Part shown: positions 1 through 42,384 of the stretch, piece by piece | Position numbering within the stretch: the stretch's first letter is position 1 | How the letters are laid out: each line of letters starts with the position of its first letter | Position numbers and translations under genes: made by a program | Sequence record: OR188718.1 | DNA length: 42,384 nt | From: Pseudomonas phage LPPA56 | Reading direction: 5' to 3' (one strand) | The notes under the pieces: model-generated | What the model was told of the DNA's origin: nothing | The model's database searches: none | The model's input: the letters and a program-made list of their open reading frames with translations, nothing else

Positions 1-123
1 TTCAACCCGAGCCGGCAATGGCCACCCGCGGGCGGGGTGTCGCGAAAAGCGGGGCAGTGACGTGCTACTCAAAAAGCCCCGGGGGGCCCCTGAAGCGCCG
101 CCCCCGACAAGGGTGATTCGAAC
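1..123. repeat. 123-bp terminal direct repeat, left copy (genome terminus / circular-assembly overlap)
   Basis: Read directly: nt 1-123 match 42227-42349 with one mismatch (nt 78 c vs 42304 a). Contains overlapping GGGGCCCC/CCCCGGGG palindromes at ~75-92. Confidence 0.85.
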
Positions 124-155
124 CCCGTTCTCGCGCTAGTGGCTGGGCCGGGAAG

Positions 156-210
156 TTAGTTAACAGGGTTAACCGGGTTAACCCCCCTCGGTTCATCGTG
201 GTTAACAGGT
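156..210 (+). promoter_or_regulatory. four GGTTAAC(M)GG direct repeats upstream of terS; putative TerS (Nu1-like) binding sites, cosB-like
   Basis: GTTAAC at 159-164, 168-173, 177-182, 201-206, immediately 5' of the terS start. Analogy to lambda cosB R sites is inference. Confidence 0.45.
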
Positions 211-217
211 ACCGCAC

Positions 218-808
218 ATGGAGTTCATGACCAAGGCAGCGTTCGCGGACCGCCAAGGCTGGTCGCGCGCCTACGTGTCGAAGCTGGTCCGGCAAGGACG
301 CCTCGTCCTCACTGCCGACGGAAAGGTCGACGTCCAGGCGAGCGACGAACTGCTGGCCGCCAGCGCAGACCCGAGCAAGGCTGCCGTGGCCGAGCGGCAC
401 CGGCAGGAGCGGGTGGAGAAGGGCGTGTACGCCCACATAGGCGCAGGTGCAGCCCCGAGCCCGGCCTTACCGGCACCTGGGCAGACCGCACCGCTGCCCG
501 ACTACCAGAAAGCCCGCGCGCGGCGGGAGTACGCCCTGGCTCTGCTGGCAGAAGACGAACACCGCAAGAGCCGTGGCGAGACGGTCGAGCGCGCGCGTGT
601 CGACTCCGCGGCCTTCACCGCTGCTCGCGCTCTGCGCGATCTGCTGATGGGCGTGCCGCCGAAAATCGCCGGCGACCTGGTGACGCTGACCGACCCCTGG
701 GAAATCGAACGCCGCCTGACCCAGGCGCTGCGCCGTGCCTTGGAAGATGCCGACCGCCTCCTGCAGCTCGATGCCGAGATCGAACAAGGGGGCAAGGAGC
801 CGAACTGA
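218..808 (+). CDS. terS: terminase small subunit (Nu1-like HTH N-terminus)
   Basis: 196-aa ORF directly upstream of and nearly abutting terL. N-terminus FADRQGWSRAYVSKLVRQGRL resembles the Nu1 winged-HTH. Alternative ATG at 227. Confidence 0.55.
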   Translation: MEFMTKAAFADRQGWSRAYVSKLVRQGRLVLTADGKVDVQASDELLAASADPSKAAVAERHRQERVEKGVYAHIGAGAAPSPALPAPGQTAPLPDYQKARARREYALALLAEDEHRKSRGETVERARVDSAAFTAARALRDLLMGVPPKIAGDLVTLTDPWEIERRLTQALRRALEDADRLLQLDAEIEQGGKEPN

Positions 809-811
809 ACC

Positions 812-2827
812 ATGGAACAACCGTATGCCGACGGTGCCGCCGTGTACCTGGCGGCATACCGTCGAGGACTGAAGCCTGACCCCGAACTGTGGATCGATGA
901 GTGGGCGGACGAGTTCCAGATGATCCCGGCGGATACGGGGGCGGCCGAGCCGGGCAAGTACCACACCGACCGGACCCCCTATGCGCGCGAGCCGATGCGT
1001 TGCCTGTCGCCGCTGTTCCCAGCCAAGCGCGTGGTGACGATGATCGCCTCGCAGCTGATGAAGACCCAGGTCGCCTTGAACTGGATCGGCGGCTGTATCC
1101 ACATGGCACCGGCCAACATCCTGGTGCTGCTGCCCACCGAGAAGCTGAGCAAGCGGGTATCAGGACGGATCGATAAGACGATCAAGGCCGTGCCTGTGCT
1201 GACCGCGCGCGTTGCCAAGGCCCGCTCGCGCGACTCGCGAAACACGCTCGACACCAAGGAGTTCGAGGGGGGCGCACTGTACTGCGCATCAGCCGGCTCG
1301 GCCTCCAACCTGGCCGAGTTGTCCGCTCGGTACGTGTACGGCGACGAAATCGATCGCTGGGAAATGGACGTCGACGACGACGGCGACCCGGTCAAGCAGG
1401 CCGAGGCGCGCGGTTCGACGTTCGGCCGCCGCGCGAAGTTCTACTACTCCAGCTCGCCCACGCTGAAAGGCGTTTCGCGGATCGCCGACCTCTTCACCCA
1501 GGGCGACCAGCGGCACTACTACGTCCCGTGTCCGCATTGCGGAACGATGCAGGTGCTGGAATGGGAGGGCCTGAAGTACGACCCCGAGTACCGCCTTGTG
1601 CAGTACATGTGCTGCAACGAGGAGTGCGGCGCCCTGATCGAGGAGCACCACAAGGCGGCCATGCTGTCCGCTGGCGAGTGGCGAGCCCATGCCGTCGGTG
1701 ACGGCGAGACCGTCAGTTTCACCCTGAGCGCGCTGTATGCGCCTCCCGGCTGGTTGACCTGGACGGACCTGGCGAAGGAGTACGACGAGGCCAAGCGTCT
1801 ACAGGAGAAGGGCGATCCCGGGTCCATGCAGGTGTTCTACAACACCCGTTTGGCCCGGCTGTGGGACAGCGCCGAGGAAATGACCAAGGCGGACGAGCTG
1901 CGCAAGCGAGCCGAGGCCGAGGGGCATCGGCTGGGTCTGGTACCCGCCGGAGCGCTGCTGCTGACCGCGGCGGTCGATACCCAGCACAACCGCTTGGAAA
2001 TGCTGGTGATGGGCTGGGGCGAGGGCCTGGAGCGCTGGACGGTCGATTTCCAGGTGATCCCCGGCGACCCGACCGACGAGCGTACCTGGGCGCTGCTCGA
2101 CGAGCGCCTGAAGGCTCGATATCGGCACGTCAGCGGTGTGGACCTGGCCATCTGCGCGGTCTGCATCGACTCGGGCGGTCACCATACCCATGAGGTCTAC
2201 CAGTTCACCCGCCTGCGCCGCTGGCGAAACGTGCTGGCGGTGAAGGGGGCGAGCAAGCGCGGCCGCCCAGTGCTGGCCCAGCGGCCGTCCAAGGTCGACG
2301 TCACCTGGCAGGGCACCGTCGAGAAGAGTGGCGCCGAACTATGGATGGTCGGTACCGACACGGCGAAGGACTGGGTCTACAACCGCTACCACCTCAAGGA
2401 TGGCCCCGGGGCGTTGCACTTCTCCGCAGACCTGCCGCCTGACTTCTTCGACCAGTGCGTGGCCGAGCGCAAGGTGGTCCGCTACGTGAAGGGGTTCAAG
2501 CGCACCGACTGGGTCAAGGCCAAGTCGGAGCGAAACGAGGCCCTCGACCTCATCGTGTACAACCTGGCCGCAGCCCACTTCCTCAACCTGCATCGCTATC
2601 ACGCTCCTCAGTGGAGCAGCCTGCGCGCAGCGGTAGGTCAAGGCAGCCTGTTCGCCGACCCAGTCGCCACGGTGCCCAGCGCAGCCGACGAGGCGGACGA
2701 GCATGAGCCGCAGGGCGAGGCGCCAAGCGCCCCAGTGCGGCCGGCACCTCCCGCGCGGAGCGCGAACCCACCATCCCAACCAACTGGCCGGCGTACCTCG
2801 CGCAGCGGGTATCTGAGCCGCCGATAG
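812..2827 (+). CDS. terL: terminase large subunit, lambda GpA-like
   Basis: 671 aa, the size and position of lambda gpA, followed by W-like, portal, protease and capsid genes in lambda order. Confidence 0.85.
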   Translation: MEQPYADGAAVYLAAYRRGLKPDPELWIDEWADEFQMIPADTGAAEPGKYHTDRTPYAREPMRCLSPLFPAKRVVTMIASQLMKTQVALNWIGGCIHMAPANILVLLPTEKLSKRVSGRIDKTIKAVPVLTARVAKARSRDSRNTLDTKEFEGGALYCASAGSASNLAELSARYVYGDEIDRWEMDVDDDGDPVKQAEARGSTFGRRAKFYYSSSPTLKGVSRIADLFTQGDQRHYYVPCPHCGTMQVLEWEGLKYDPEYRLVQYMCCNEECGALIEEHHKAAMLSAGEWRAHAVGDGETVSFTLSALYAPPGWLTWTDLAKEYDEAKRLQEKGDPGSMQVFYNTRLARLWDSAEEMTKADELRKRAEAEGHRLGLVPAGALLLTAAVDTQHNRLEMLVMGWGEGLERWTVDFQVIPGDPTDERTWALLDERLKARYRHVSGVDLAICAVCIDSGGHHTHEVYQFTRLRRWRNVLAVKGASKRGRPVLAQRPSKVDVTWQGTVEKSGAELWMVGTDTAKDWVYNRYHLKDGPGALHFSADLPPDFFDQCVAERKVVRYVKGFKRTDWVKAKSERNEALDLIVYNLAAAHFLNLHRYHAPQWSSLRAAVGQGSLFADPVATVPSAADEADEHEPQGEAPSAPVRPAPPARSANPPSQPTGRRTSRSGYLSRR

Positions 2828-2838: not shown

Positions 2839-3063
2839 ATGAGCACAGCGCAGCAGCGCCTGGACGAGGTCCGGGTGGCGATTCAGGACATCCTGAAAAA
2901 AGGGCAGTCGGTGCGCAAGGGAGACCGCCAGGTCGACCGCGCGCAACTGGCGAGTCTGCGCGTTCTGGAGCAGCAGTACGCCGAAGCCGCAGCCCTGGAG
3001 GCGGCTACGAACAACCGGCGCTCGCGCCAGGTTCGCCTCTACAGCGGAGGCAAGGGGATCTGA
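2839..3063 (+). CDS. head-tail joining protein, gpW-like
   Basis: 74 aa between terL and portal as in lambda. Basic, Gln-rich sequence pattern resembles gpW. Confidence 0.55.
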   Translation: MSTAQQRLDEVRVAIQDILKKGQSVRKGDRQVDRAQLASLRVLEQQYAEAAALEAATNNRRSRQVRLYSGGKGI

Positions 3064-4529
3064 TGGCTACCCGATACCGAATCACGTCGAAGCGCATTCG
3101 CAACAGCTACGAGGGCGCTGGCACCGGACGCCGCGCCGCTGGCTGGGACGCGCCCGAGGCGGCGCTGAATGCGGTAGCCATTCCGGCATTGCCGACCCTG
3201 CGCAAGCGCTCGCGAGCGGCGGTGAGGAATGACCCCTACGCCGCGAGCGCGATCAGCAAGCGCGTCAGCAACCTGATCGGCACCGGCATTACGCCGCGCG
3301 CACGTCTGGACGACGCGGTGCTGCGCGAGGCGTTGAACCTGCTGTGGGAGGACTGGGTAGACGAGTCGGACGCGGATGACCGTACCGATTTCTACGGCCT
3401 GCAGATGATCATCGCGCGGATGGTCGAGGAAGCGGGCGAGTGCTTCGTGAGGCGCCGTAACCGGCGGCCGGAGGACGGCCTGGCGGTCCCACTGCAACTG
3501 CAGGTGCTACCGCCTGACTTCGTCCCGGTGGATCGCAATTTCACGACCCGCAGCGGCAACGTGGTGCGCGCGGGAATCGAGTTCGATGCCATCGGCCGCC
3601 GGATTGCCTACTGGATGTGGCAGAGCCATCCCGGCGATCCGGCAGCGCCCCGGCGCGGCTACAACCAGCTCAACCGCATCCCGGCGGACCAGGTGCTGCA
3701 CATCTTCGAGCCGCTGGAGGGTGGCCAGTTGCGCGGTGTGCCGCGCTTGTCGCCGGTTCTCCTGCGGCTGAAGTCGCTGGATAACTACGACGACGCGGTG
3801 CTGTTCAGGCAGGAAGTCTCCAACCTGTTCGCCGGCTTCATCACCAGGCCTCGACAGGATGGGGCGCCGATCTTCGATCCGTCGACCGGGCTGGCACCTG
3901 CGCAGGATCGCGACGGGACGCCGATGGTCGGCCTGGAGCCGGGGACCATGCAGGAACTGTTGGAAGGGGAGGAGGTGGTTTTCTCCGACCCGCCGGACGC
4001 CGGTAACACCTACGTCGACTTCATGCGACAGCAACTGATGGCAGCGGCGGTCGGTGTCGACCTGCCGTATGAGCTACTCACCGGCGACATGGGCGATATC
4101 AGCGACCGCACCTTGCGGGTGCTGCTCAACGAGTTTCGGCGCCGGATCGAACAGGTTCAATTCAGCGTGTACGTCTACCAGCTCTGCCGCCCGGTGCGCG
4201 CGTGGTGGCTGGATACCGCGTACCTCAGCGGAGCAGTCGACCTGCCGGACTATCCGGCGCGGCGACGTGAGTTCCTGCGCACGCGTTGGATCCCGCAGGG
4301 CTGGGCCTACATCCATCCGGTGCAGGACGTCCAGGGCAAGCTGCTGGAGATCGGCGGAGGCCTCGCCAGCCGGAGCGAGCATGCGCTACGCACCGGATAC
4401 GACGCCGAGGTGATCGACCGGGAGAACGCCCAGGACAACGCCCGGGCCGAGAGCCTGAACCTGCACTACACCACCGACACCGGGCAACCGGTGAGAGACC
4501 AAGGGGACACCCATGAAGAAACGCAATGA
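3063..4529 (+). CDS. portal protein (lambda gpB family)
   Basis: 488 aa; position after terL/W; ATGA overlap with W-like gene. Confidence 0.8.
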   Translation: MATRYRITSKRIRNSYEGAGTGRRAAGWDAPEAALNAVAIPALPTLRKRSRAAVRNDPYAASAISKRVSNLIGTGITPRARLDDAVLREALNLLWEDWVDESDADDRTDFYGLQMIIARMVEEAGECFVRRRNRRPEDGLAVPLQLQVLPPDFVPVDRNFTTRSGNVVRAGIEFDAIGRRIAYWMWQSHPGDPAAPRRGYNQLNRIPADQVLHIFEPLEGGQLRGVPRLSPVLLRLKSLDNYDDAVLFRQEVSNLFAGFITRPRQDGAPIFDPSTGLAPAQDRDGTPMVGLEPGTMQELLEGEEVVFSDPPDAGNTYVDFMRQQLMAAAVGVDLPYELLTGDMGDISDRTLRVLLNEFRRRIEQVQFSVYVYQLCRPVRAWWLDTAYLSGAVDLPDYPARRREFLRTRWIPQGWAYIHPVQDVQGKLLEIGGGLASRSEHALRTGYDAEVIDRENAQDNARAESLNLHYTTDTGQPVRDQGDTHEETQ

Positions 4530-5685
4530 ACAGCCCCTGGCGCTGGCCGCCCTGTGGGCGTTGCTGGGCGTAGGCACGCTCGCCGATCCGCGCATCCAGA
4601 ACAAGGCGCAGGGCGCGCCGGATCTGCAGGCCGAGCACTGGTACAGCGTCAAGGCGCTGAGCGCTGAGGGTGCCGGCTCGGTCGCCTCCATCGAGATCTA
4701 TATCTACGGCGAAATCGGCTTTTGGGGCATCACCTCCGCGGATTTCATCCGCGACCTGAAAGCAGTCGACGACGGCACCTCTCCGGTACTGGTTCACTTC
4801 GACACCATCGGCGGCGACCTCTTCGACGGCATCGCCATCCACAACGCGCTCCGGGCCCTGGGCGAACGCTGCACCGCCCGGATCGACGGGGCCTGCTTCA
4901 GCGCGGGCAGTGTCGCGGCCTGCGGCGCGCACCGGGTCGAAATGGCCGACAACGCGCTGTTCATGATCCACAACCCCTGGACCTTCGCGGCAGGCGACAG
5001 CGAAGACCTGCGCAAGGTCGCCGACATGATGGACCAGGCGTTCGAGGGCATCGTGGCGAGCTACCAGCATCGGCCGCTGAATGTCGACGACGCCGAACTG
5101 CGCCGGATGATCGACGACGAAACCTGGCTCACCGCGCCCGAGGCGAAGGACAAGGGGTTCGTGGACGAGGTGCTCGGCGCGGCCGAGCCGGTCGGCGTGA
5201 ATGCACGCCTGGGCAAGGTGCTGAATCGCTATCGCAACACGCCTGACGCGGCGCGCCGGCTGCTGGCCAGCCAGGAGCCAGCGGGTGACCTCCCCCCGAC
5301 GTCGGCCGAACTGGCTGCGGAGCTGACGGCGGACTGCGCCCAGGCCGGTCTGGCCGACTGCGCGGCGTATCTGATCAAGGCCTCGGGCCTGAAGGATCGC
5401 GAGACTGTGCGCGGGGCCTTGGACCGGGCGAAGGCCGTCCGGTCGGTATGCCTCGTCGCGAAAATGCCCAATGAGGCCAAGGCGCTCATCGAGGAGGGCC
5501 TGGATGCCGACGGCGCCCGTCTGCGGCTGTACGACAAGATCGTAGCGCGCAGCACCCAGGTGGAGATCGACAACCGCGTGCCGACGGACGATCTGCCGCA
5601 GAACAAGGCTTACCAACCCCCGGCGCCGAGCGACGTGTACGCGAAGCGCCGGCTCAATGCCTCGAAAGGAGGAAAGCAAGCATGA
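4513..5685 (+). CDS. prohead protease (S49/ClpP-like, gpC-like), possibly with C-terminal scaffold
   Basis: Motifs IYIYGEIG...FDTIGGDLFDG...CFSAGSVAA...FMIHNPW are typical of the S49/ClpP serine protease fold. Position after portal. Confidence 0.75.
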   Translation: MKKRNEQPLALAALWALLGVGTLADPRIQNKAQGAPDLQAEHWYSVKALSAEGAGSVASIEIYIYGEIGFWGITSADFIRDLKAVDDGTSPVLVHFDTIGGDLFDGIAIHNALRALGERCTARIDGACFSAGSVAACGAHRVEMADNALFMIHNPWTFAAGDSEDLRKVADMMDQAFEGIVASYQHRPLNVDDAELRRMIDDETWLTAPEAKDKGFVDEVLGAAEPVGVNARLGKVLNRYRNTPDAARRLLASQEPAGDLPPTSAELAAELTADCAQAGLADCAAYLIKASGLKDRETVRGALDRAKAVRSVCLVAKMPNEAKALIEEGLDADGARLRLYDKIVARSTQVEIDNRVPTDDLPQNKAYQPPAPSDVYAKRRLNASKGGKQA

Positions 5686-6317
5686 CCATCAAGACCGAAG
5701 GCGTTCACGCCGGAGAGTTCCTCCTGTCGGAGGCCAACGGCTCGCGCAGCCGCGAAAACATCGTCATCACCGCCGGCTCCGGCCGGCTGGTGGCGGGTAC
5801 CTTGATCGCCCCCATCACCGCCGCCAATGCGCTGACCGCAACCGCGGCGGCAGGGAACACCGGCGACGGCACCGTCGGTGCCACCGTGGTGACCAGCGCC
5901 GCCATCAGCGGCACCTACGTGCTGGAAATCACCGAGGCCGGAGCCAATGGCGGCAAGTTCGAGGTGGTCGACCCGCAGGGACGCCAGGTGGGCACTGGTC
6001 AAGTCGGCCAGGCGTTCACCGGCGGCGGAATCGGCTTCACCCTTTCCGACGGGGCCACCGACTTCGTGGTGGGTGATCGCTTCACCCTGCAGGTGTTGGC
6101 AGGGCTCGGCGAGTGGACGCCCTACGACGACGACGGTGCCGATGACGGCCGTCGCGCGGCTGGCGGCATTCTGTTCGGTCCAGTGGACGCCACGGATGCC
6201 GACGTCAAGGCGGTGGCCGTAGTCCGTGATGCCGAAGTGATCGCCAGCCTGCTGACCGGCCTGGATGCCGCCGGTGAGGCCGACCTCAAGGCGCTGGGCC
6301 TCATCCTTCGCACCTGA
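5682..6317 (+). CDS. head decoration / scaffold-like protein
   Basis: 211 aa, Gly/Ala-rich, between protease and major capsid, where lambda has Nu3/D. Confidence 0.4.
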   Translation: MTIKTEGVHAGEFLLSEANGSRSRENIVITAGSGRLVAGTLIAPITAANALTATAAAGNTGDGTVGATVVTSAAISGTYVLEITEAGANGGKFEVVDPQGRQVGTGQVGQAFTGGGIGFTLSDGATDFVVGDRFTLQVLAGLGEWTPYDDDGADDGRRAAGGILFGPVDATDADVKAVAVVRDAEVIASLLTGLDAAGEADLKALGLILRT

Positions 6318-6345
6318 CCCTCCTCCGTCCCTCAACCACCTCAAG

Positions 6346-6366
6346 CCCCGCCTGCGCGGGGTTTTT
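6346..6366 (+). terminator. intrinsic terminator/attenuator hairpin (CCCCGCctgcGCGGGG + T5) 20 nt upstream of capsid start
   Basis: 6-bp GC stem, 4-nt loop and T-run read directly. Followed by CATTTCTGGAG then ATG 6385. Confidence 0.5.
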
Positions 6367-6384
6367 CATTTCTGGAGTATCCAC

Positions 6385-7383
6385 ATGGCTGAAATCAGCA
6401 TTTTCGAAGATGAGGCGTTCTCGGTGGAGGCGCTGCTGGCGGTGATCAACACCGATCACCCGGTGCCGGGGCAACTCGCCGCGCTGGGCCTGTTCGAGGA
6501 ACAGGGTGTGTCCTCGCTGGTGGTGCAGATCGAAAAAGACGGCACCACGCTGCAACTGGTGGAGGCGAAAGCCCGCGGCGGCGTAGGCCAGGTCGTGACC
6601 GGTGACAAGCGTCAACTGGTCCCCTTCAACACCGTTCACCTGCCGCAGACGTTCCAGATCCTCGCCGATGAAATCCAGGGCATCCGTGCGGTGGGTAGCC
6701 GGACCGAGCTGCAGTCCGCCGAGGCGGTCGTGGCCAAGCGCCTGGAAAAAGCGCGCCGCCAGTTGGACCTGACCCACGAGTATCAGCGCATCGGCGCCAT
6801 CAAGGGCAAGATTCTTGATGCCGACGGTTCGACGGTACTGCTGGATATCTACCAGGCCTTCGGACTGAGGAAGCCCAAGCCGCGATCGCTCGAACTGGGT
6901 AACCCCGAGGGTGATCTGAGCGGCATTCTTGCCGACCTACTCGACGAGCAGGACGACGCGCTGGGCAACGTCACCAGCACCGGTTCGCGAGCGTTCTGTG
7001 GCAAGAACTTCTGGGCCAAGTTCATCGATCACCCCAAAGTGCGCGGCACTTACCTGAACACTCTGCAGGCGGCGCAACTGCGGGGTGACCGTCGCCAGTC
7101 GTTCGAGTTCGGCGGCGTGGTCTGGGAGCGCTATCGCGGCAAGCATGACGGGGAGCCGTTCGTGGACGATGGCAGTGCCCAACTGGTCCCGGAGGGGGTT
7201 CCGGACCTGTTCATCAGCGCCTTTGCGCCGGCGGACTACATGGAGGTCGTCAACACCGAAGGCCTGCCGTACTACGCCAAGCTTGAGCGTCTGCCCTTCG
7301 ACAAAGGCGTGGCTGGGGAAGCGCAATCGAACCCGCTGCACCTGTGCACTCGCCCGTTGGCGGTGCGCGAACTGACCCTCTGA
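6385..7383 (+). CDS. major capsid protein, lambda gpE-like
   Basis: 332 aa from ATG 6385 (GGAG RBS). ORF track starts earlier at 6265, but that extension overlaps the terminator hairpin. Size and position match gpE. Confidence 0.75.
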   Translation: MAEISIFEDEAFSVEALLAVINTDHPVPGQLAALGLFEEQGVSSLVVQIEKDGTTLQLVEAKARGGVGQVVTGDKRQLVPFNTVHLPQTFQILADEIQGIRAVGSRTELQSAEAVVAKRLEKARRQLDLTHEYQRIGAIKGKILDADGSTVLLDIYQAFGLRKPKPRSLELGNPEGDLSGILADLLDEQDDALGNVTSTGSRAFCGKNFWAKFIDHPKVRGTYLNTLQAAQLRGDRRQSFEFGGVVWERYRGKHDGEPFVDDGSAQLVPEGVPDLFISAFAPADYMEVVNTEGLPYYAKLERLPFDKGVAGEAQSNPLHLCTRPLAVRELTL

Positions 7384-9236: not shown

Positions 9237-12200
9237 ATGGCGAACCCAATGCAGCGCCTGATCCAGTTCGTTCTTCGCGGCCGGGACGAACTGTCGCCCG
9301 CCGCCCAGCAGTCGACCGAGGCGCTGGAAGGGCTGCGCACCACGGCGGCGAACCTGAACCGGCAGTTGGACGATGCGAAGGGGGCTCGCGGCCTGGTGAC
9401 CGCGCTCGGAACTACCGAGCGCGCCATTGCGCAGACGCAGACGTCGGTGCAGCGGGTGGACCGTACCATTGCGGACCTGCGCGAGGCGTTGGACCGCAAC
9501 CCCGGGAGCCGGGGCCTGGCCGTGTCCCTGCAGATCGCGGAGCGGGACGCAGCGGGTCTGCGTCGGACCCTTGACCAACTGACCGCTCGGCACGCTGAGC
9601 AGCAACGTGCGGCGCGGGCGGCGGGCGTGGATACCGGCCAGCTTGCCACCGAGGAGCGGCGGCTGGCGTCGGTGGTCGACAACACCCGCGAGAGCATCGC
9701 GCAGAACAGCCGCGAGATCCGCGAGCTGGAACGTGCGCAGATGCGAGCGGCGCGGGAGGCTGCTGGCCACACCTCGCGCGTGACGGCGCTGCGCGAGGCC
9801 ATGTCGTCCGGTGTTCGCCAGGCAGCCGCTTACGCCGCGGCCTTCGTCGGCATCCAGGCGGCGCTGAACCTGTTGCGCAGTGGAATCGGCCTGGTGCGTG
9901 ATGGCATCGTCTCGATGCTGACCACCGGCGACCAGTTCGAGAACCTGCAGAATCGGCTCACGTCGCTGATGGGCTCGGTTGCCGAGGGTGAGCGGGCAAC
10001 CGCCTGGATCAAGACCTTTGCCAAGGACACGCCGCTTCAGTTGAGCGACGTCGCCGACGCCTTCGCGCTGCTGAAGGCCTACGGCCTGGACCCGATGGAT
10101 GGGTCGCTGAAAGCGATCGAGGACCAGTCGGAGAAGCTGGGCGGCGGCATGGAGCGCCTGGAGGGCATCACGACAGCAGTCGGTCAGGCCTGGGCGAAGC
10201 AGAAGCTGCAGACCGAGGAGATCCTGCAGTTGGTCGAGCGTGGCGTGCCGGCGTGGGACATGCTGGCCAAGGTCACCGGCAAGAATGCCGCGCAGCTGGA
10301 GGATCTGGCGAGCAAGGGCAAGCTTGGCCGGGACGTCATCAAGGCGCTGGTCGACGAAATGGGGCGCAGCTCCGAAGGGGCCGCTGCGAAGGCCATGAGC
10401 ACCCTGACCGGTCTGGTCAGCAACCTCGGCGACACTGCGGCCGACTTTCTCAACCGCATTGCCAACGCCGGCGCGCTGGACCACGTCAAGAACAAGCTGA
10501 AGGAACTGGGCGATACCATTGCGCAGATGGACCAGGACGGGCGCCTCGACACGCTGGCCAAGGGGCTGTCGGATGCCTTCGTCCAGGGCTCGGAATGGGT
10601 CGAGCGCTTCATCAAGCGCCTGGCCGACGTCGATTTCGGCACCCTGATCGACAAGACCTCGGCCTGGCTTAGCAGCTTCAGCACCCAGCTGGACGACATG
10701 GCCTCGCGGGTGCAACTGTTCATCGCGCCGTTCCGGACGTTGTTCAACGGTGTCACCTCGGGCATCAGCGCTATCGCCCTGGCCTGGACCGGCACCCTGT
10801 CGCTGATGGTCGCCGGCATCGAGAAGGTGGCGGAGAAGATCCCGGCGGCGCTGGGTGGGGAGCGCATCCGCAGTTCCGTCGCCGGCGTCCACGACTTGCT
10901 CAGCAGCATGAGCGAGGGTTTCCGCCAGCAGATCCAGCAGGACGCGCAGGATATCGCGGATGCCTGGAACACCAGCACCACGGCTACCGCCTCCGCCGCA
11001 CAGCAGCAGAGCCAGGCGATCACCGACACCTTCACCGACCTGAAGGCGGGTGCGAAGAACGCGGCCGCCGAGTCGGTGCAGGCGGTGACCAGCCTGCAGA
11101 ATGCCCTGGACCAGATCAGCGCGGCCAAGACCACCGAGCAACTGACCGCCCTGCAGGGGGAAATGCTCAAGGCCTACCAGGCCGGCACGCTGAGCCAGCA
11201 GGAGTATGCGAACGGCGCCGGTGTCCTCAACGCGAAGCTGACCGAACTGAAGTCGACCGCCGGCGGCGCCGCCCTGGGGGTGTCTGACCTCAGTACCGGC
11301 CTGGAGAACTTGAAGCAGGTCCAGGACGCGATCAGCAGCGCGAAGACCACGGTCGATATCCAGAACATCCGGACGGCGCTGGGCCGGCTGTACAACGACG
11401 GCACGATCAGCGCGCGGGAGTTCAACCAGGAACAGACCAAGCTGTCCGCCAAGGTCAAGGAACTGAAGGCGGCCGGCGAGGAGGGCGCCAAGGGTATGCA
11501 GGCGGTCGCGGAGTCCTCGGACAAGGCGGCCAAATCGCTCTCGGACCAGCGCAAGGCCATTGGCGAATCGATGGAGGCGACCCGCAAGGGAGTAGCGTCG
11601 ACGAAGGACGACATGGGCGCCTTCGAAGGGTTCTTCGGTGGGGTGTTGAGCACCGCGCGGCAGGGCGTTGCGCAGTTGAGCCAGGAAGCGCTGAACGCCT
11701 TCGACGCGATGCGTGGGATCTCCACCGTCGATCTCAGCATCGACACCAGCAGCCTGGACGCCACGTCGCGCTCGCTGGCCAAGGTCAGCGAGCAACTGGC
11801 CCGGATCAAGGCCGAGTCGGGTGTGGGCATGAGCGGTTTCGGGCGCTGGGCGATGGATACCCAGCGAGCCAGCCTGGAGATCCAGGCGGCGTACCTGGAG
11901 CAGAAGCGCAGCCTGCAGAGCCTGATGGACGACTACGAGCGCGGGACCATGAAGCTGGGCGACTTCGTGTCGGCGGCCAAGGGCGCTCGAAATGGCCTCA
12001 GCCTGCTGAACGATTCGGATATGCGGCAACTGGAGAGCGCAATCGAGGCGGCCAATCAGAAGATCCAGCAGCTCAAGGAAGGCTCGAAGTCGACGCTGGT
12101 CAGCCTGCGCGAGGAACTGGCGGGGCTGCGCGGCGAGCAGGAAGCCGTGGATCGCAGCCGGTTCAACAGCCGTAAGGCTGAGTTGCAGCAGCAACTGGCC

Positions 12201-12509
12201 GAGGCCCAGGGCAGCGGCGACATGAACGCGGTACAGAACCTGATGACGGCGCTGGCCACCCTGCAGCAGATCCAGGCCGAGACGGATGCCAAGCGGCAGC
12301 GAGAGGAGCAGCAGAAGCGGGTGGACGAGCAGAACGCCGCCAAGGCCGCGGCGGCGCCGCCTGCCTCGCCGCCGGCTTCGAGTCCTCCGCCCCGGGTCGT
12401 TCGTTTCGAGACGGCGCGGGGAGCCGTTGACGTGGCGGTGGCCAGCGAACAGGACGAAACCAACCTGCTCGGCGTGCTCGAGCAGGCCAGCATGAGGACC
12501 GGCCGATGA
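9237..12509 (+). CDS. tail tape measure protein
   Basis: 1090 aa, Ala/Gln/Leu-rich with long predicted coiled coils; position after major tail gene. Confidence 0.8.
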
Positions 12510-22683: not shown

Positions 22684-22686
22684 GGC

Positions 22687-24692: not shown

Positions 24693-25151
24693 TCAGGCGG
24701 CGACTGGCGAGGGCCAGGCGCCGACAGCGTCATAGATGCGGGCGGCCTGGGCTTCGTCCAGGGTCACGCTGTCGGGAATTGCAATCCAGCCGGAGCTGAC
24801 GATGTGCTTCGAATTACAGCTGGCGAGGTGTTCGCGGTAGAAGGCCTCTATCACGTCGGTTAGCTGGTCGGCGAGGTAGACGCCTTGTGGCGCCACCTCG
24901 GTGCTCTTGATGTAGCGCTTGCCGAACTGGTCGATGCACAGGGCGCTGATGTAGATGCACCAGGGATGGGTGAAGTCGCACACCGCGTCAACCATGGGGT
25001 GCGACTTAATCAGCCTGCCGGTTTTCCAGTTCACTAGGTGCTGGTCGCCGGCTGGATCGATGTTGATCACGGCGGCGTGGTTGGTGCGCACCAGTGCCCG
25101 GCAGTTGCGCTCGAGGCGGGCGCGCATGTTGTGGGGCTTGCGGGTGCTCAT
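24693..25151 (-). CDS. hypothetical protein
   Basis: 152-aa ORF, ATGA-coupled to the upstream gene. Confidence 0.4.
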   Translation of the reverse strand: MSTRKPHNMRARLERNCRALVRTNHAAVINIDPAGDQHLVNWKTGRLIKSHPMVDAVCDFTHPWCIYISALCIDQFGKRYIKSTEVAPQGVYLADQLTDVIEAFYREHLASCNSKHIVSSGWIAIPDSVTLDEAQAARIYDAVGAWPSPVAA

Positions 25152-27729: not shown

Positions 27730-27775
27730 GAGTGCCTCGATAGAAAATCCAGCATGGCCGCCGGTGTTGCCGTTC

Positions 27776-27877
27776 GATGCTGCGGACGGCGAAAGCGGGC
27801 CGTGCGTTGTCCTTGTCGTCGTTGTTCTGGTTGCCATCGTCGAAGTTCTGGATCCACGCGTTGTTCGGGCCGTTCTG
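27776..27877 (-). repeat. DGR template repeat (TR)
   Basis: 102-bp copy next to the RT. Every site that differs in the other two copies is an adenine on the minus strand. 8 AAC codons in the VR frame. Confidence 0.85.
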
Positions 27878-28051
27878 CGCCAGGTCGTGCTATCTACGTC
27901 GCGCTGCCGAAGGCCGAGGCCGATCAGTGGCGAGACTGCGCAGGGCCTGCCGGGACGATGCCCGGCGGTTCCCCTGGTGCGCATGACGGTGGCCTTGTGA
28001 GCCAGCGGCACGACCAGAATCAAAATCGCGCTGGTGTGAGGGCCGTGGCGC

Positions 28052-28414
28052 TCACACGGCTGGCGATGCGGCGGCATTTCGTTTCCACCCAGTGGCCTGC
28101 CGGCCTATGTCGTCGGTGATTTCAATGGCTCGGCCGTGCTGGGCTCCGCTGAGCAGCCCGAGGTCGACCGAGAGGCGCAGCATCAGTTCGACGACCTGGA
28201 TGCGTTCCAGGATCAGCTGAATGTGCGCTACCCGTTCCTGGCCGCCGGCCGTGTTGGCGCGGAAGATCAGGATCGACACGTCGATGCACTCGTTGAGCAC
28301 CTTTTCCCCGAGGGTGCGCTTGAAGTCGCGGCGCCACCCTTTGGAGAGGTCGGCTACAAGCCGGGCCAGTTCTCCGGCGCGTTTGTAGATCGGCAGGTGT
28401 TGGGCGATGGCCAT
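28052..28414 (-). CDS. avd: Avd-like accessory variability determinant (four-helix-bundle protein)
   Basis: 120 aa, basic, predicted helical, lying between target gene and TR as in the Bordetella phage mtd-avd-TR-brt cassette. Confidence 0.7.
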   Translation of the reverse strand: MAIAQHLPIYKRAGELARLVADLSKGWRRDFKRTLGEKVLNECIDVSILIFRANTAGGQERVAHIQLILERIQVVELMLRLSVDLGLLSGAQHGRAIEITDDIGRQATGWKRNAAASPAV

Positions 28415-34613: not shown

Positions 34614-35300
34614 TCAGGCGGAGGGAATAAAGCGTGAGGACTTGACTATCGCTCCAACGAAATGGACATGGACGATCTCGTCGTCTTCCAGGAAGACGGG
34701 AGATTCGTTGGGGTTCACGCTGTCGAAGCGCCAAGTGCCCTCTCGGCGGTAGCTGTATTCCTTGATCATTGCGCGGCCATCAACTGTCTTAACCAGCACT
34801 TCGTCGCCTGGCGCAAAGGAGCGGTTTGGCTCGATCATCACATACTCTTTGTGCTTGATTCTCGGGTGCATGCTATGCCCGACAACCTGCAGCGCATAGG
34901 CATTGGGATCGGTGCTGCTGATTAAGATGCTGCCGTCGCCATGGCCCACTGGATAGTCTAGGGCCTCGAAGTATCCATCTACACCCAACTTAGCTTTCCC
35001 TACTACTGGGACGCTTCCTTTCAGCACCGGTAGGGCTTCCTCTTCCAGGTTGCTCACCGGTAGGTCTTTCCCTTGAGCCCGATGCACGTCCGGGAATTGG
35101 GTTGGCATCACAAGAGAGTTCGGTGCTAGGCCAATCTTTGCCTCTAGGTTTCGTGCGGCTTTCTCGCCCATCGGGCGATGGCCATTCAGCAGTTGCGAGA
35201 TGTAGGAAGCGTCAAGGTTGTGCTTCTCAGCAAAATCCTTGGTCTTCTGATCGCCGATGAGGGCGCCAAGGGCGCGGATTCTGAGCTTGTTGATGTCCAT
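34614..35300 (-). CDS. cI: CI-like repressor (XRE HTH + S24 LexA-like peptidase domain)
   Basis: N-terminus DFAEKHNLDASYISQLLNG (HTH). C-terminus GHSMHP (catalytic Ser) and VDGRAMIKEY (Lys). Divergent from cro. Confidence 0.85.
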   Translation of the reverse strand: MDINKLRIRALGALIGDQKTKDFAEKHNLDASYISQLLNGHRPMGEKAARNLEAKIGLAPNSLVMPTQFPDVHRAQGKDLPVSNLEEEALPVLKGSVPVVGKAKLGVDGYFEALDYPVGHGDGSILISSTDPNAYALQVVGHSMHPRIKHKEYVMIEPNRSFAPGDEVLVKTVDGRAMIKEYSYRREGTWRFDSVNPNESPVFLEDDEIVHVHFVGAIVKSSRFIPSA

Positions 35301-35881: not shown

Positions 35882-36026
35882 ATTCGACCTGGACCAGTTC
35901 GGGGCCGCGCTGTTTTAGGCGGTAGAACTCTAGGCCGCTGAAGTCGACTTCGTAGTGATCGGGGTAGACGGCGAGATGCTCCCGGAGCATTCCGACGGTG
36001 ATTGTCTGAGGCTTCTTGGAGGGCAT
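35823..36026 (-). CDS. small hypothetical protein on the opposite strand within the rightward early region
   Basis: 67 aa from ATG 36026 (AAGGA RBS), high GC3. Confidence 0.3.
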   Translation of the reverse strand: MPSKKPQTITVGMLREHLAVYPDHYEVDFSGLEFYRLKQRGPELVQVEFSEQVYRDKTGRVVVESLE

Positions 36027-36232
36027 ACGCAGTTCCTTGCGAAAAGAAGAGGGAGGTGAATACAGAAAAGGTTGGCCGGCGCGGGCCTCTACACCCGCGC
36101 CGGCCGGGTGCCGGACAGGGCCTCTACACCCTGGGCCCGGCGTACGACGACACAGCACATTGCATCGGTCGTGGTCATAGAGTAGGGCGAGCCCCGCTCG
36201 ATGGCTACACCGTAAAAGGAGTATTTACGGTT

Positions 36233-36733
36233 ATGAGCCGGAAAGACCTGCTGCCGGACGCCGGTCCGGTATTCGATCTCCGCCAGGCGCTATACCGCGC
36301 AGGGCGCGACTACAAGGGAGGCTTGACCTCCCTGGCCCACGACATGGTTCTGCCCTATGAGGACCTGCAGAAGAAACTGAAGCTTGACGAGGAACGCCGG
36401 TGGCCCACCCCCGACGAACTCGAAGACATCATCCGCCTGACCAAGGATCCACGCCTGCTGGACGCACTGATGCGCCCGGCCGGTGCTGTCTGGTATCGGC
36501 CTGAGGCGGTCAATGCCACGGCTTCCGCCCTGAAGGCGGTCGGGGATTTGCTGCAGCGCGAAGGCGAGTTTGTTGCCAGTCTGCATAAAGGTGCGGATGA
36601 CAACCGCTGGGAGCCCGTCGAGGTCGCCGATCTGGAGTACCACGGTGCGAATGTGATTCGGGCTGTCCTGGGCATCATGGCCGGCGCCCGCCAGGCAATG
36701 GAGCAGGATCTGGAGGATAGAGCCAATGGGTGA
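36233..36733 (+). CDS. CII-like regulatory protein (Phage_CP76-like)
   Basis: 166 aa from ATG 36233 (AAGGAG RBS); position after cro. Family assignment from memory. Confidence 0.35.
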   Translation: MSRKDLLPDAGPVFDLRQALYRAGRDYKGGLTSLAHDMVLPYEDLQKKLKLDEERRWPTPDELEDIIRLTKDPRLLDALMRPAGAVWYRPEAVNATASALKAVGDLLQREGEFVASLHKGADDNRWEPVEVADLEYHGANVIRAVLGIMAGARQAMEQDLEDRANG

Positions 36734-36968
36734 CATCCTCGATCGCGCCTCCGAACTGGAGGAGTTCCATTTGCAGGCGGCGCTCGCTTCTCGACCCCGT
36801 CCGGCGCCGGCGTACAGTATCAGCGCGACGATCTGCGATGACTGCGGCAGCGAGATCCCACCAGCGCGCCGCCTGGCGGTGCCTGGGTGTGATTGCTGCG
36901 TTGAGTGCCAGCAGCGCAGGGAGGTGCGTCGTGGATACCGCTTGCAGACTAAGTCGGGGGCGGTATGA
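36726..36968 (+). CDS. TraR/DksA-family C4 zinc-finger protein
   Basis: CDDCGSEIPPARRLAVPGCDCCVECQ: CxxC-N17-CxxC. Confidence 0.7.
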   Translation: MGDILDRASELEEFHLQAALASRPRPAPAYSISATICDDCGSEIPPARRLAVPGCDCCVECQQRREVRRGYRLQTKSGAV

Positions 36969-39703
36969 GGCCTGGCGAAGATAGTCTACGTAGCGAGTGG
37001 GCTCGCTGGTATGTCGAACAAGGCATCGCGCTGGTAGTCATCGAACCGGGGAACAAGATCCCCAAGGGCAAGGCCTGGCAGAGGCCAGGTGGTTACTACA
37101 CCGATGCTGCCCAGGCTGAGGCTTTCTGGTCCAAGCATCCGAAGCACAACATGGGGGCTGTACTCGGCCCCAGTCGTGTTTGCTCGCTGGACGTCGACGA
37201 CGTCCCATCCACTCGCCAGGTGCTGTGGGACTGCCTCGGGTTGGATCTGGATGCGTTGCCGGTAGCCTACCCCACCGTGGTAGGGAATCCGGAGCGCTTC
37301 CGAATTCTGTTCCAGGTGCCGGATGGGGTTGAGCTGAGTCGGCACTCACTGAGCTGGCCCAACGAGAAGGACCCGGACGGCTCCAAGTTCAAGCTCGCGC
37401 AGGCGGCGATCCTCGCAGCGAAAGAGAAGGGGGATGCCGAGCAGCAGACAAAGATGCAGGTGCTGGCCGACAGCCTGAAGCGCTTCACCGTGTTCGAGCT
37501 GCGCGCAGGCCTAGTGCAGGACGTCCTGCCACCCTCCATCCATCCTGGCACCGGGCGACCGTACACCTGGCGCAACCCGCCAAAGGGTGAGGGGCTACCG
37601 GTATTGCCGGACAACCTGCTGAACATCTGGAAGAACTGGGACATCTTCAAGCGTGACGCCGAGGCGGCATGCCCTTGGGCGCCGGTGCAGAAACCGAAGA
37701 AGGTTACCAAACCGAAGCGGCTGGCTCCGGCTGGTAGCGCTGGGTCGGTTATCGATGCCTTCAACCGGGCACACGATGTCGAGGCATTGCTCGAGGCGCA
37801 TGGCTACCTCAAGCGTGGGAAGAAGTGGCTGTGTCCGCAGAGCAGCACCGGCTTGCCGGGCGTCACGGTCAGCGAGGGGCGGGTGTATTCACACCATGGC
37901 TCAGACCCTCTCGCCAACGGCCACCAGAACGACGCGTTCGACGTGTTCTGCATCCTCGACCACAACGGCAACCAGGGCGAGGCGGTCAAGGCCGCGGCGC
38001 GCCTACTGGGCATCGAGCGCGAGTCCAGAGCACCCAGTGTTCGCGAGGCGCTGGAGCAGTTCGATCAGATGCTTAGCGGCGATGAGCCGCCCCCCAGCCC
38101 GGCCAAGGAGCTTCCCCGCTCCCCATCGGTCGAAGACGTGGATGCCGACGGCGACGCCGCAGGTGACAGGGGGGCGGGGGAGGGCCTGACTCTGGCCAAG
38201 GCGCTGCGGCGCTACGCCCTGGTCGAGGGGACAACCCACGTGTGGGACATCGACAAGGCGATGAAGATGAAGAAGACCGCCTTCGTCGCCCTGGTGGGCC
38301 AGAAGGTTTTCAAGGAGTGGTCGGAGGTTACCGACGAGAAGAAGAAAAAGCGCATCAGCGAAGAGCAGGTCAAGGAGATCGAGCGAGCCCGGTCCATGGC
38401 CGGAAAGGCCGTCGGGCCGATGAGCATGCCTCCAGCGGTGCGCTACGTCTACATCGATGGCACCAAGGACGTGTGGGACCTGGCGAAGAAACGGCGTGTG
38501 CCCGAGGGCGCAGTGAAGATGGCCCTGGGCGATGCCTACTCGCTCTGGCTCAACAGCCCGGAGCGCCGGGTGGTAGACGTTGCCGACATTGTCTTTGACC
38601 CGACGATGACGTGCGACACCAAGACATGCATCAACACGTTCGAGGGCCTGCCGCTGGAGCCCAAGCGCGATGATGCGGCGTGCGAGAACCTCCGCTGGCT
38701 GATCGCCTTTCTGTGCAACCACGCTGAGGACTCCATGCAGTGGCTGGTGCGCTGGCTTGCGTATCCGCTGCAGCACACCGGCGCGAAGATGGACACGGCG
38801 GTGCTGATGCACTCGACGATGGAGGGGTCAGGCAAGAGCCTCTTGTTCTCCGTCGTGATGGGACGCCTGTATGGTCAGTATTCCGCCACGGTTGGGCAGA
38901 CCCAGCTTGAGGGGAACTTCAATGCCTGGCAGAGCGGCAAGTTGTGGGCGGTGTTCGAGGAAGTGGTCAGCCGGGACCAGCGCTACAACCAGGTCGGCAA
39001 GATCAAGCAGTTGATCACCGGTCAGACCGTGCGCATCGAGAGCAAGTTCGTGAACGGCTGGGAAGAAGCCAGCCACATGAACGCTGTGTTCCTTTCCAAC
39101 GAAATCATGCCCTGGCCAATCAGCGAGGGTGATCGGCGGTTCTTGGTCATGTGGCCCGAGGAAAAGCTGCCGGAGGCCAGGCAGAAGGCGATCAAGCACG
39201 AGTTGGCCAATGGCGGCGTCGAAGCGCTATATGCCTGGCTGCTGGCCCAGGACTTAGGCGACTTCGACCCACAGACCAAGCCACCGAGCACGCCGGCGCG
39301 CGAACGCCTGGTGGCCTTGAGTAGGTCCACCTGGCAGACGTTCGTACACCTCTGGCGCAGCGGTGAACTCGGGCACGGGCTGTGGGGGGCATGCATGAGC
39401 AAAGATCTCTACGCGCTGTTTCTGGAGTGGTGCCAGCAGAACAAGGAGCATTCGATAAGCCACACGAAGTTCAGTCTGTTCATCAGCACGGCAAGTATCG
39501 AGAAGACCAGGCCAATTCCCTGGACGGACGGCAGCAACCGTCGGTTCGCGGCGTTCTTCTTCCCTGAGGACCCGGAGTCCTTCCTGCCCCCATCCCCTTC
39601 CTCGGCCGCGCTGGGTGCGCACGTGGTCGAGTGGCGGGCGCGAGCCAAGCTAGCGGGCTGGAACGTGGACAGTTGGGACCATGTGAAGGGGCACGCGACG
39701 TGA
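36965..39703 (+). CDS. replication protein: N-terminal Prim-Pol primase fused to a D5_N / SF3 helicase (P4 alpha-like)
   Basis: 912 aa; Walker A MEGSGKSLLFSVV; VDDV acidic primase motif in the N-terminal domain. Followed by an iteron origin. Confidence 0.8.
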   Translation: MRPGEDSLRSEWARWYVEQGIALVVIEPGNKIPKGKAWQRPGGYYTDAAQAEAFWSKHPKHNMGAVLGPSRVCSLDVDDVPSTRQVLWDCLGLDLDALPVAYPTVVGNPERFRILFQVPDGVELSRHSLSWPNEKDPDGSKFKLAQAAILAAKEKGDAEQQTKMQVLADSLKRFTVFELRAGLVQDVLPPSIHPGTGRPYTWRNPPKGEGLPVLPDNLLNIWKNWDIFKRDAEAACPWAPVQKPKKVTKPKRLAPAGSAGSVIDAFNRAHDVEALLEAHGYLKRGKKWLCPQSSTGLPGVTVSEGRVYSHHGSDPLANGHQNDAFDVFCILDHNGNQGEAVKAAARLLGIERESRAPSVREALEQFDQMLSGDEPPPSPAKELPRSPSVEDVDADGDAAGDRGAGEGLTLAKALRRYALVEGTTHVWDIDKAMKMKKTAFVALVGQKVFKEWSEVTDEKKKKRISEEQVKEIERARSMAGKAVGPMSMPPAVRYVYIDGTKDVWDLAKKRRVPEGAVKMALGDAYSLWLNSPERRVVDVADIVFDPTMTCDTKTCINTFEGLPLEPKRDDAACENLRWLIAFLCNHAEDSMQWLVRWLAYPLQHTGAKMDTAVLMHSTMEGSGKSLLFSVVMGRLYGQYSATVGQTQLEGNFNAWQSGKLWAVFEEVVSRDQRYNQVGKIKQLITGQTVRIESKFVNGWEEASHMNAVFLSNEIMPWPISEGDRRFLVMWPEEKLPEARQKAIKHELANGGVEALYAWLLAQDLGDFDPQTKPPSTPARERLVALSRSTWQTFVHLWRSGELGHGLWGACMSKDLYALFLEWCQQNKEHSISHTKFSLFISTASIEKTRPIPWTDGSNRRFAAFFFPEDPESFLPPSPSSAALGAHVVEWRARAKLAGWNVDSWDHVKGHAT

Positions 39704-40020: not shown

Positions 40021-40042
40021 GTTTCAGGCGGGGAGAGGGGCG

Positions 40043-40743: not shown

Positions 40744-40772
40744 AGCCCCTCGCTCGAGGGGCTTTCTCTTTT
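40744..40772 (+). terminator. late-leader terminator AGCCCCTCgctcGAGGGGCT + TTCTCTTTTCTG, 27 nt before holin start
   Basis: 8-bp stem, 4-nt loop, T-rich tail; tR'-like position. Confidence 0.55.
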
Positions 40773-40798
40773 CTGCCGCCGGCTGAGGAGTTCTAGCG

Positions 40799-41164: not shown

Positions 41165-41447
41165 CCATCTGGTGCAATTGCTGCTGACGCAAGCGACGTT
41201 CTGGCTTTGCGTCGGTATGTTCCTCCGGCTCTTCACCTACCAGCGGGGGGAAGCACGCTATCGGTTCGGTATCTCGTGCCTCGCCTGGCTGGTTATGGGG
41301 AGCGCTGGTTCTGCAGCGCTCTACATCCTGAAAGGCTGGCTGGTTGTACCGCCGCATGCCTGGCCTCTGGTCGTCTTGCTCGGCGTGTTCGCGTGGGCGT
41401 TGTTTCGGACTCGGGGCAACCTTGCCCGGGTCTGGCGGATTCAGTAG
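41157..41447 (+). CDS. second small membrane protein (antiholin or second holin candidate)
   Basis: 96 aa, 2-3 hydrophobic helices, overlapping the holin stop. Confidence 0.4.
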   Translation: MGNHLVQLLLTQATFWLCVGMFLRLFTYQRGEARYRFGISCLAWLVMGSAGSAALYILKGWLVVPPHAWPLVVLLGVFAWALFRTRGNLARVWRIQ

Positions 41448-41449
41448 CG

Positions 41450-42187
41450 ATGCGCGGCAGTATCTCGGCCAGGGACTTGGACGACGCCGTTCGGTCCTTG
41501 CAGCAGCTCGGTGGCGACTTGCCTGCTGCTGTGTTGGCCGACGCCTTGAACCACACGGCGAACCAGGCGAATCAGGCGCTGGTCGGGGAGATCGACCAGG
41601 TCTTCGACCGGCCGACACCGTTCACCCGCAACGCTGTCCGCATCCTGCATGCCACTTCGCGCCGCCTTGAGGCGGCCTTGTGGGTGAAGGACGAAAAGGA
41701 CCATGCCTCGAAGGGGCAGGCGCCGGAGGACTGGGTGGCTCCCCAAGTCTTCGGGGGGCCGAGGGTGGACAAGGCGTCGGAGCGGAACCTCCGAGCCCGA
41801 GGCATCCTGCCGGCGGGCATGTTCGTCGTTCCAGCGGAGGGCGCCCGGCTGGACCAGTACGGCAACATGAGCCGCGGCCAGATGATCCAGATCCTCTCCG
41901 GCCTGGGCGCCCTGGAATACCGAGCGGGGTTCAAAGGAAACGCCACTCAGTCGGCGCGCTCCCTGGCGAAGGGACACCAACTGGCGTACTTCGTGATGCG
42001 CCGTGGCCGCCGACCCATTGGCATCGCCGAGCGCCGTGGACGGACGTTGACCATGGTCCTCGCCTTCGTCCGCCAGCCTCAGTACCGCGTGCGCTTCCAG
42101 TTTCACGAAGTCGTTCGGCGTGTTGCCGAGGACGACGCGCGCATCGAGGCGAACATCGAGCGGGCCCTGGCGAAAGCGTTGCGCTGA
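41450..42187 (+). CDS. hypothetical protein (last gene before the terminus; no Cys, so not HNH)
   Basis: 245 aa from ATG 41450 (track ORF 41207..42187). Confidence 0.35.
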   Translation: MRGSISARDLDDAVRSLQQLGGDLPAAVLADALNHTANQANQALVGEIDQVFDRPTPFTRNAVRILHATSRRLEAALWVKDEKDHASKGQAPEDWVAPQVFGGPRVDKASERNLRARGILPAGMFVVPAEGARLDQYGNMSRGQMIQILSGLGALEYRAGFKGNATQSARSLAKGHQLAYFVMRRGRRPIGIAERRGRTLTMVLAFVRQPQYRVRFQFHEVVRRVAEDDARIEANIERALAKALR

Positions 42188-42226
42188 ATCGTTGGCGGGT
42201 GGCCTGGCCGGGTGGAGCGGGGTTAG

Positions 42227-42349
42227 TTCAACCCGAGCCGGCAATGGCCACCCGCGGGCGGGGTGTCGCGAAAAGCGGGGCAGTGACGTGCTACTCAAAA
42301 AGCACCGGGGGGCCCCTGAAGCGCCGCCCCCGACAAGGGTGATTCGAAC
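42227..42349. repeat. 123-bp terminal direct repeat, right copy
   Basis: matches nt 1-123 (1 mismatch). Confidence 0.85.
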
Positions 42350-42381
42350 AAGTCGGAGGCCAAGCGGTCTTAGGAAGACAA
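42350..42381 (+). other. non-biological: probable MGI/BGI sequencing adapter (AAGTCGGAGGCCAAGCGGTCTTAGGAAGACAA) read-through at contig end
   Basis: 32-nt string recognised from memory as the DNBSEQ read-1 adapter; begins exactly where homology to nt 124+ stops. Confidence 0.6.
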
Positions 42382-42384
42382 CGC

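Follow-up and report, generated by a model that had tools for sequence, protein, structure and literature searches.

The sequence record OR188718.1 (Pseudomonas phage LPPA56; 42,384 nt, analysed over its whole length and referred to here as the window) ends in a near-perfect repeat of its own first 123 nt followed by a short foreign tail. Our analysis indicates, with high confidence, that the window holds, as a unit of 42,226 bp, the whole genome of a temperate lambda-like siphovirus of Pseudomonas aeruginosa with DNA packaging from a cohesive-end site (cos), and that the apparent terminal repeat arose from assembly overlap. An initial annotation made from the letters alone had already recognized a whole phage genome with a unit of ~42,226 bp, which was borne out. 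It had also favoured a terminally redundant virion genome, with a short direct terminal repeat (DTR), over a simple circular-assembly overlap; of this proposal the real end at 42349 stood, whereas the repeat itself is best explained as a circle-closure overlap (k=77) extended by a dead-end tip.

The ends of the window were compared directly, showing that nucleotides 1-123 recur at 42227-42349 with one mismatch (C at 78 and A at 42304), as reported initially, and that the similarity breaks exactly between 123 and 124 and between 42349 and 42350. The exact prefix shared by both ends is 77 nt long, a detail that had been missed. Nucleotides 42350-42381 match AAGTCGGAGGCCAAGCGGTCTTAGGAAGACAA, a string that a benchmark of sequencing platforms (bioRxiv 10.1101/2020.03.22.002840) calls 'MGI sequencing adapter left' and that occurs in 57 papers of the searchable literature, at 32 of 32 positions, and CGC comes next; a search of both strands detected the adapter nowhere else in the window, the left end included. 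In the phage record LPPA36 (GenBank OR188719.1) this 32-mer precedes a 10-nt barcode, after which the MGI right adapter appears in reverse complement, and because of this layout the CGC of the window was read as the first three nucleotides of a barcode. The tail is accordingly an exact match to the manufacturer's sequence followed by barcode, and both the recognition of an MGI/DNBSEQ adapter and the advice to trim the last 35 nt were correct. The right end of the window therefore comprises two features:

42227..42349, + strand: the likely genuine right end of the end-repaired virion DNA, carrying A at 42304 and terminating at the predicted filled-in cohesive end
42350..42384, + strand: MGI/DNBSEQ adapter (32 nt) plus 3 nt of sample barcode, non-biological and to be trimmed

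The LPPA36 record contains a complete 84-nt MGI adapter unit embedded at 177-260. Across the site it reads ...GGACAAGGGTGATTCGAAC, then AAGTCGG...GACAA, CCATATCAAG and CAACTCC...CCGACTT, then GGTGATTCGAACCCCGTTCTCGC...; in short, the adapter unit is joined to ...GGGTGATTCGAAC on one side and to GGTGATTCGAACCCCGTT... on the other. Its left adapter junction follows the same base as that of the window (the equivalent of 123), and the genome resumes after the adapter at the window equivalent of 112, so that GGTGATTCGAAC flanks the adapter on both sides. LPPA36 constitutes independent evidence because it is a different phage, covering 6% of the right half of the window, and carries a different barcode; the possibility that the two records came from the same sample was rejected on the differing lysogeny/replication halves and barcodes. 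Three further contigs, obtained from virion DNA by other laboratories with other chemistries, break at the same place: Pacha_bin_1 begins at the equivalent of 112 with GGTAATTCGAAC..., Presto has its record end at 112 and a mis-joined right arm at 123-125, and Haddon ends at 119, its opposite end being a fold-back of window positions 126-143. The left end of Haddon was discarded as an exact terminus, the 18-nt inverted duplication of 126-143 being a fold-back artefact that places the end within ~20 nt. The publications on Haddon and on Pacha/Presto state how sequencing was done and contain no analysis of termini, and a scan of IMG/VR for the end-plus-adapter junction GGTGATTCGAACAAGTCGGAGG returned 0 matches, that is, no further adapter-tagged example in that database. 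With the LPPA36 adapter joined after the same base and breaks there in three other assemblies of virion DNA, position 42349 marks a genuine physical end of the DNA, as the initial annotation had proposed. A purely artefactual circular overlap, in which no fixed end exists and the adapter derives from a chance short-insert read ending at 123, would draw on the fact that adapter read-through is possible at any sheared fragment end and on the k=77 de Bruijn-graph geometry of the overlap described below. It would, however, leave to chance (~1 in 42,000) that a fragment from an independent library of a different phage ends in adapter after the same base, with a left junction 12 nt upstream, as well as the breaks in the three other assemblies and the location of the site just upstream of the small terminase gene terS, where a lambda-type cos is expected; we regard this explanation as very improbable.

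The junctions in LPPA36, Pacha and Presto place the left physical end at about 112 rather than at 1. Cohesive ends are ≤20 nt and DTRs >100 bp long according to the PhageTerm paper, and during end repair 5' overhangs are filled in and 3' overhangs trimmed away, so that 5'-cos phages share terminal sequence over the cohesive length (PMC5557969). Under this rule, ends at 112 (left) and 123 (right) lead to 12-nt 5' cohesive ends, with probable nicks between 111 and 112 on the top strand and between 123 and 124 on the bottom strand; the 5' polarity of the overhang, likewise derived from the rule, is probable. The fixed termini would thus share a short (≤20 nt) filled-in sequence, with the right end taken from the window itself (123) and the left end from its relatives, and under this cos model each strand would measure 42,226 nt, with a duplex region of 124-42337:

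112..123, + strand, with a second copy at 42338-42349: candidate cohesive-end segment (cosN overhang) GGTGATTCGAAC, delimited by the 12-mer duplication in LPPA36, the starts of Pacha and Presto, and the adapter after 123 in the window

The cos sequence is uninterrupted in 10 prophage copies in chromosomes and in 32 IMG/VR contigs, and the region 107-206 is nearly invariant among GenBank relatives, prophages and IMG/VR contigs. Neither the 12-mer GGTGATTCGAAC nor its reverse complement was found in the searchable literature, and no cos is annotated in the GenBank relatives LPPA36, Lodos, vB_Pae_U5, Meadow, Turba and Haddon. Two-fold symmetry around the nicks, as judged by eye, is weak (G^G at both nicks and GGGT/ACCC flanks, with a half-base offset) and was not used as evidence. 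Separately, a 20.6-kb IMG/VR contig (L051; IMGVR_UViG_2582581004_000001) ends at the window equivalent of 114, within the 12-nt segment, and could be another assembly broken at cos. Two homopolymers in the region also vary in length: the G-run at 83-88 and 42309-42314 has six G in the window and five in most relatives, the six-G form being common only to two prophages (L013 and L018) and one IMG/VR contig (L032), and the C-run at 183-188 ranges from 4 to 6 among relatives; these differences are either length polymorphisms or sequencing errors.

The terminase genes lie directly downstream of this segment:

218..808, + strand: terS, small terminase subunit (phrog_57, E 6.7e-35)
812..2827, + strand: terL, large terminase subunit of the lambda gpA family (Pfam GpA_ATPase E 6.8e-81 and GpA_nuclease E 4.4e-101; phrog_15)

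TerL combines the ATPase and endonuclease domains of the gpA family, with scores of 272 and 338 bits, respectively, both well over the curated cut-offs; its family assignment rests on Pfam and PHROGs because a sequence search of the PDB returned nothing at E ≤0.001. Terminases of the gpA family package from cos sites. A gpA-family TerL thus makes a T7-style DTR unlikely and leads one to expect a cos just upstream of terS, and the cut at 112-123 is indeed followed by terS at 218, ~95 bp away, and by terL at 812. The N-terminus of TerS resembles a helix-turn-helix when judged by eye alone, and no Pfam family matched the protein at E ≤0.001, Nu1 included.

To account for the left boundary of the repeat, the window was modelled as a de Bruijn graph at varying k. 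At k=77 only, the first k-mer (1-77) is the sole node that branches outward, the graph having one sink and no source, and the 42,384 nt decompose into a 42,226-nt cycle, the same 77-mer again and an 81-nt dead-end tip, the last made up of A78, 45 nt to the physical end and 35 nt of adapter and barcode; the length of the repeat follows from the same geometry (123 = 77 + 1 + 45). At k=76 the contig would start at position 2, and at k=78 the cycle is absent. The exact end overlap equals the assembler k of this graph and the contig starts at one of its vertices: position 1 is a graph vertex, not a DNA end, and the repeat of 123 nt is a product of assembly. The LPPA36 record also shows an exact 77-nt end overlap, from which it follows that k=77 assemblies have been used for such data. 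The initial annotation had taken the mismatch as an argument against an exact k-mer overlap, but a mismatch at 78 leaves an exact overlap of 77 nt, the very k that gives a cycle plus tip. Two features of the left end are explained in this way:

1..111, + strand: redundant copy of the genome right-end sequence (= 42227-42337), probably present at the contig start because the assembler path crosses cos, and not a physical terminal repeat
78, + strand: C here against A at 42304, the difference from which the graph branch, and with it the start of the contig, arises

Position 78 is A in 8 GenBank relatives, 10 prophage copies and 33 IMG/VR contigs, and the C78 variant was absent from all 51 relatives compared (0 IMG/VR contigs). 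Judged from this comparison, the right-hand A at 42304 is the natural sequence, and C78 is probably an error near G/C runs or a rare variant on cos-crossing reads. The difference could instead be real, packaged and unpackaged DNA differing, for example, through a second near-identical resident prophage that supplies uncut cos reads; taken jointly with the adapter-mining proposal given below, this idea was considered unlikely.

These data also bear on a T7/T3-like linear virion genome with a true 123-bp DTR and ends at 1 and 42349. Both the repeat and its junction with the adapter are genuine, and 123 bp comes near the smallest DTRs on record (PMC5557969). The terminase, however, is lambda gpA-type and no DTR-type enzyme, the left end of the window carries no adapter, and 112 is the left end in LPPA36, Pacha and Presto alike; the repeat begins on the k=77 branch vertex, the chance of a mismatch falling at position 78 being ~1/123, and the two copies differ, although DTR copies made from one template should match. 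No identical repeat of ≥~130 bp is present at both physical ends, and in place of a DTR-type terminase/replication module (for example, T7-like) the window shows the gpA TerL of a temperate siphovirus with an integrase and CI/CII-like regulators. A genuine 123-bp DTR is therefore extremely unlikely, the least probable of the explanations weighed here, and the terminal redundancy claimed for it most likely shrinks to the 12 nt at 112-123.

Taken together, the cos explanation suggests the following course of events. A gpA-type terminase would nick concatemeric DNA between 111 and 112 (top strand) and between 123 and 124 (bottom strand), generating 12-nt 5' cohesive ends and a virion left end of 5'-GGTGATTCGAAC. 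During MGI library preparation the 5' overhangs would be filled, such that right-end fragments finish at 123 (= 42349) and are ligated to adapter, and untrimmed read-through would leave the adapter tail. Some reads would span uncut or re-sealed cos, allowing the de Bruijn graph to close into a circle, and the C/A difference at 78 would turn the 77-mer at 1-77 into a branch point. An assembler run at k=77 may then have emitted the cycle followed by the dead-end branch from A78 through 123 into the adapter, a product that resembles a 123-bp repeat bearing a single mismatch.

Between the cut site and terS we found a cluster of short palindromes:

159..206, + strand: four GTTAAC (GTTAACMGG) motifs at 159, 168, 177 and 201, candidate cosB and putative small-terminase binding sites

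These four are the only GTTAAC hexamers in the window (clustering probability ~6e-9). Haddon, whose TerS is 61% identical to that of the window, has a nearly identical array; Pacha has an unrelated TerS (E 4.9), a gpA-type TerL at 30% identity and no array. Among 33 IMG/VR contigs, the 25 with GGTGATTCGAAC all carry the four-copy array and the window-type terS (25/25), the 7 with GGTAATTCGAAC all have a different downstream region (7/7), and one is truncated; the different-type cos loci are L002 and, from IMG/VR, L024, L028, L034, L036, L039, L043 and L050. The two cos types have a common upstream stretch of ~110 nt and a near-identical 12-mer (GGTGATTCGAAC versus GGTAATTCGAAC), whereas their TerS proteins are unrelated, their downstream repeats different and their TerL proteins just 30% identical, and homology to phages with other terminases ends at 127-138. 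Because the two types share the upstream stretch and the 12-mer but differ in TerS, downstream repeats and TerL, a mosaic boundary appears to fall right at the cut site. This arrangement, a shared upstream region and an array that tracks TerS, would fit a cosN common to several lineages and a TerS-specific cosB. The GTTAAC array is a likely candidate for cosB, the predicted binding site of the small terminase.

Several points weigh against the explanation by cos and assembly overlap. Not all records are base-exact, the Pacha right end extending 10 nt beyond 123 and Haddon ending a few nucleotides off, and the left end at 112 is transferred to the phage of the window from relatives identical over 107-182. 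No homology of TerS to lambda Nu1 was detected, its sole match being PHROG 57 'terminase small subunit'. That the window contig was assembled at k=77 is deduced from the graph, and the explanation does not account for C78 on the cos-crossing path against A78 on the end path, for which a strand-specific error beside the G-run is a guess. Finally, a 12-nt 5' overhang and a 12-bp blunt terminal redundancy are inseparable by sequence data alone, given that end-repaired short reads cannot tell a filled-in overhang from a blunt 12-bp repeat; the fixed ends at 112 and 123 might accordingly reflect blunt ends or another end chemistry. Against this, gpA-family terminases nick in a staggered manner, lambda has 12-nt 5' ends (cited in PMC5557969), and the survey in that paper includes no 12-bp DTR packaging system, its smallest DTR exceeding 100 bp. 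Ends other than 5' overhangs are in our view very unlikely, on a par with the chance adapter read.

With packaging from cos as the preferred explanation, the remaining gene content is that of a complete temperate phage. Pfam and PHROGs matches identified a packaging and structural module, and a lysogeny/replication module follows it:

3063-4529, + strand: portal, lambda family
4513-5685, + strand: ClpP-type protease
6265-7383, + strand: capsid protein E
9237-12509, + strand: tape measure protein
23295-24545, - strand: integrase
34614-35300, - strand: CI-like repressor
36002-36733: CII-like activator
36965-39703: primase

Tail proteins, spanins and holins are also encoded on the + strand. Measured in 2-kb windows, the GC content ranges over 58-69%, and a tRNA scan of the window detected zero tRNAs and thus no attP-tRNA clue. 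The packaging and structural half (1-20,373) is 94-98% identical to LPPA36, Lodos, vB_Pae_U5, Turba and Haddon, with Meadow also grouped among these closest relatives, and the lysogeny/replication half is mosaic, any single record covering ≤47% of it. In indexed public assemblies, a TerS protein exactly like that of the window occurs in 4,372 blocks, and these include many complete chromosomes of P. aeruginosa; the phage belongs to a very common temperate lambda-like P. aeruginosa lineage. Two side observations concern individual genes. A reverse transcriptase gene at 26659-28077 (- strand; phrog_1423, E 6e-110), whose top PADLOC matches are generic RT and RT_UG4/DRT-type, adjoins a 504-aa open reading frame at 25148-26662 (- strand) with no match in defence databases; the pair sits beside the integrase in a lower-GC part of the genome and, from its sequence and setting, probably represents a prophage-borne reverse-transcriptase-based defence or moron module (25148-28077, - strand). 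The final gene before cos, 41207-42187 (+ strand; ~245 aa), comes after the holin genes and is labelled 'minor tail protein' in PHROGs (phrog_1924), its product being named either hypothetical or minor tail protein in GenBank relatives; the tail annotation is doubtful because the gene is placed after the lysis genes.

The value of these results lies mainly in curation. The 35 nt of adapter and barcode and the redundant copy should be removed from the window, for example by presenting 112-42337 as a cos-oriented linear map, and the base at position 78 should read A. Because the phage is very probably of the 5'-cos class, completeness tools that call the contig 'DTR' would misassign its packaging class. 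MGI adapter sequence is present in four GenBank 'complete genome' phage records, namely LPPA36 at the internal unit described above, LPPA33 (OR188720.1, 4-87), TPWB-05 (PQ374146.1, 1-74) and TPWB-10 (PQ358089.1, 25731-25800); in LPPA36 the internal adapter and the flanking 12-nt duplication amount to 96 extra non-genomic nucleotides. Presto (PQ533662.1), Meadow (PQ533659.1) and Hali (PQ533658.1) are 'complete genomes' of ~79-80 kb, roughly twice the unit length, and at ~67264 in Presto the right end of the phage at cos runs into an internal tape-measure segment in inverted orientation, which suggests that these are chimeric assemblies joined at physical ends. Adapter read-through in public assemblies could be mined systematically for exact phage termini. 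Biologically, this is ordinary lambda-type cos packaging in a prophage lineage that has been sampled well; modestly new are the adapter contamination in GenBank phage records and the candidate 12-nt cos end, apparently unreported for a prophage family found in thousands of P. aeruginosa genomes. A base-exact candidate end GGTGATTCGAAC for such a common lineage would aid genome orientation as well as transduction and packaging studies.

Among known systems, phage lambda offers the closest parallels as well as clear differences. The lambda cohesive end reads GGGCGGCGACCT, and that proposed for the window is GGTGATTCGAAC. In lambda, cosB lies between the cut site and terS; on lambda, PMC5557969 cites Feiss et al. 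1983. The window resembles lambda in its large terminase of the gpA family (ATPase plus nuclease domains), in its portal of the lambda family, its protein E capsid and its ClpP-like protease, in a cos immediately upstream of terS-terL, in the probable 12-nt length and 5' polarity of its cohesive end (PMC5557969), and in a cluster of repeated motifs where lambda has cosB. It differs in its candidate cosB, which consists of four GTTAAC palindromes of 6 bp at spacings of 9, 9 and 24 bp where lambda has R sites, in a TerS that matches no Pfam family, Nu1 included, in its Pseudomonas host and in its GC content of 58-69%. With short-DTR phages such as T7 and T3 it shares fixed ends and an apparent repeat, 123 bp being near the smallest DTRs (PMC5557969), but its terminase is of another family, its real redundancy is probably 12 nt and the left boundary of its repeat was set by the assembler. 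Finally, like an ordinary de Bruijn circular contig, the window has an exact end overlap of 77 nt, as LPPA36 does; it departs from that pattern in that the overlap is prolonged by an 81-nt tip (a variant base, 45 nt and 35 nt of adapter), which yields a longer imperfect repeat.

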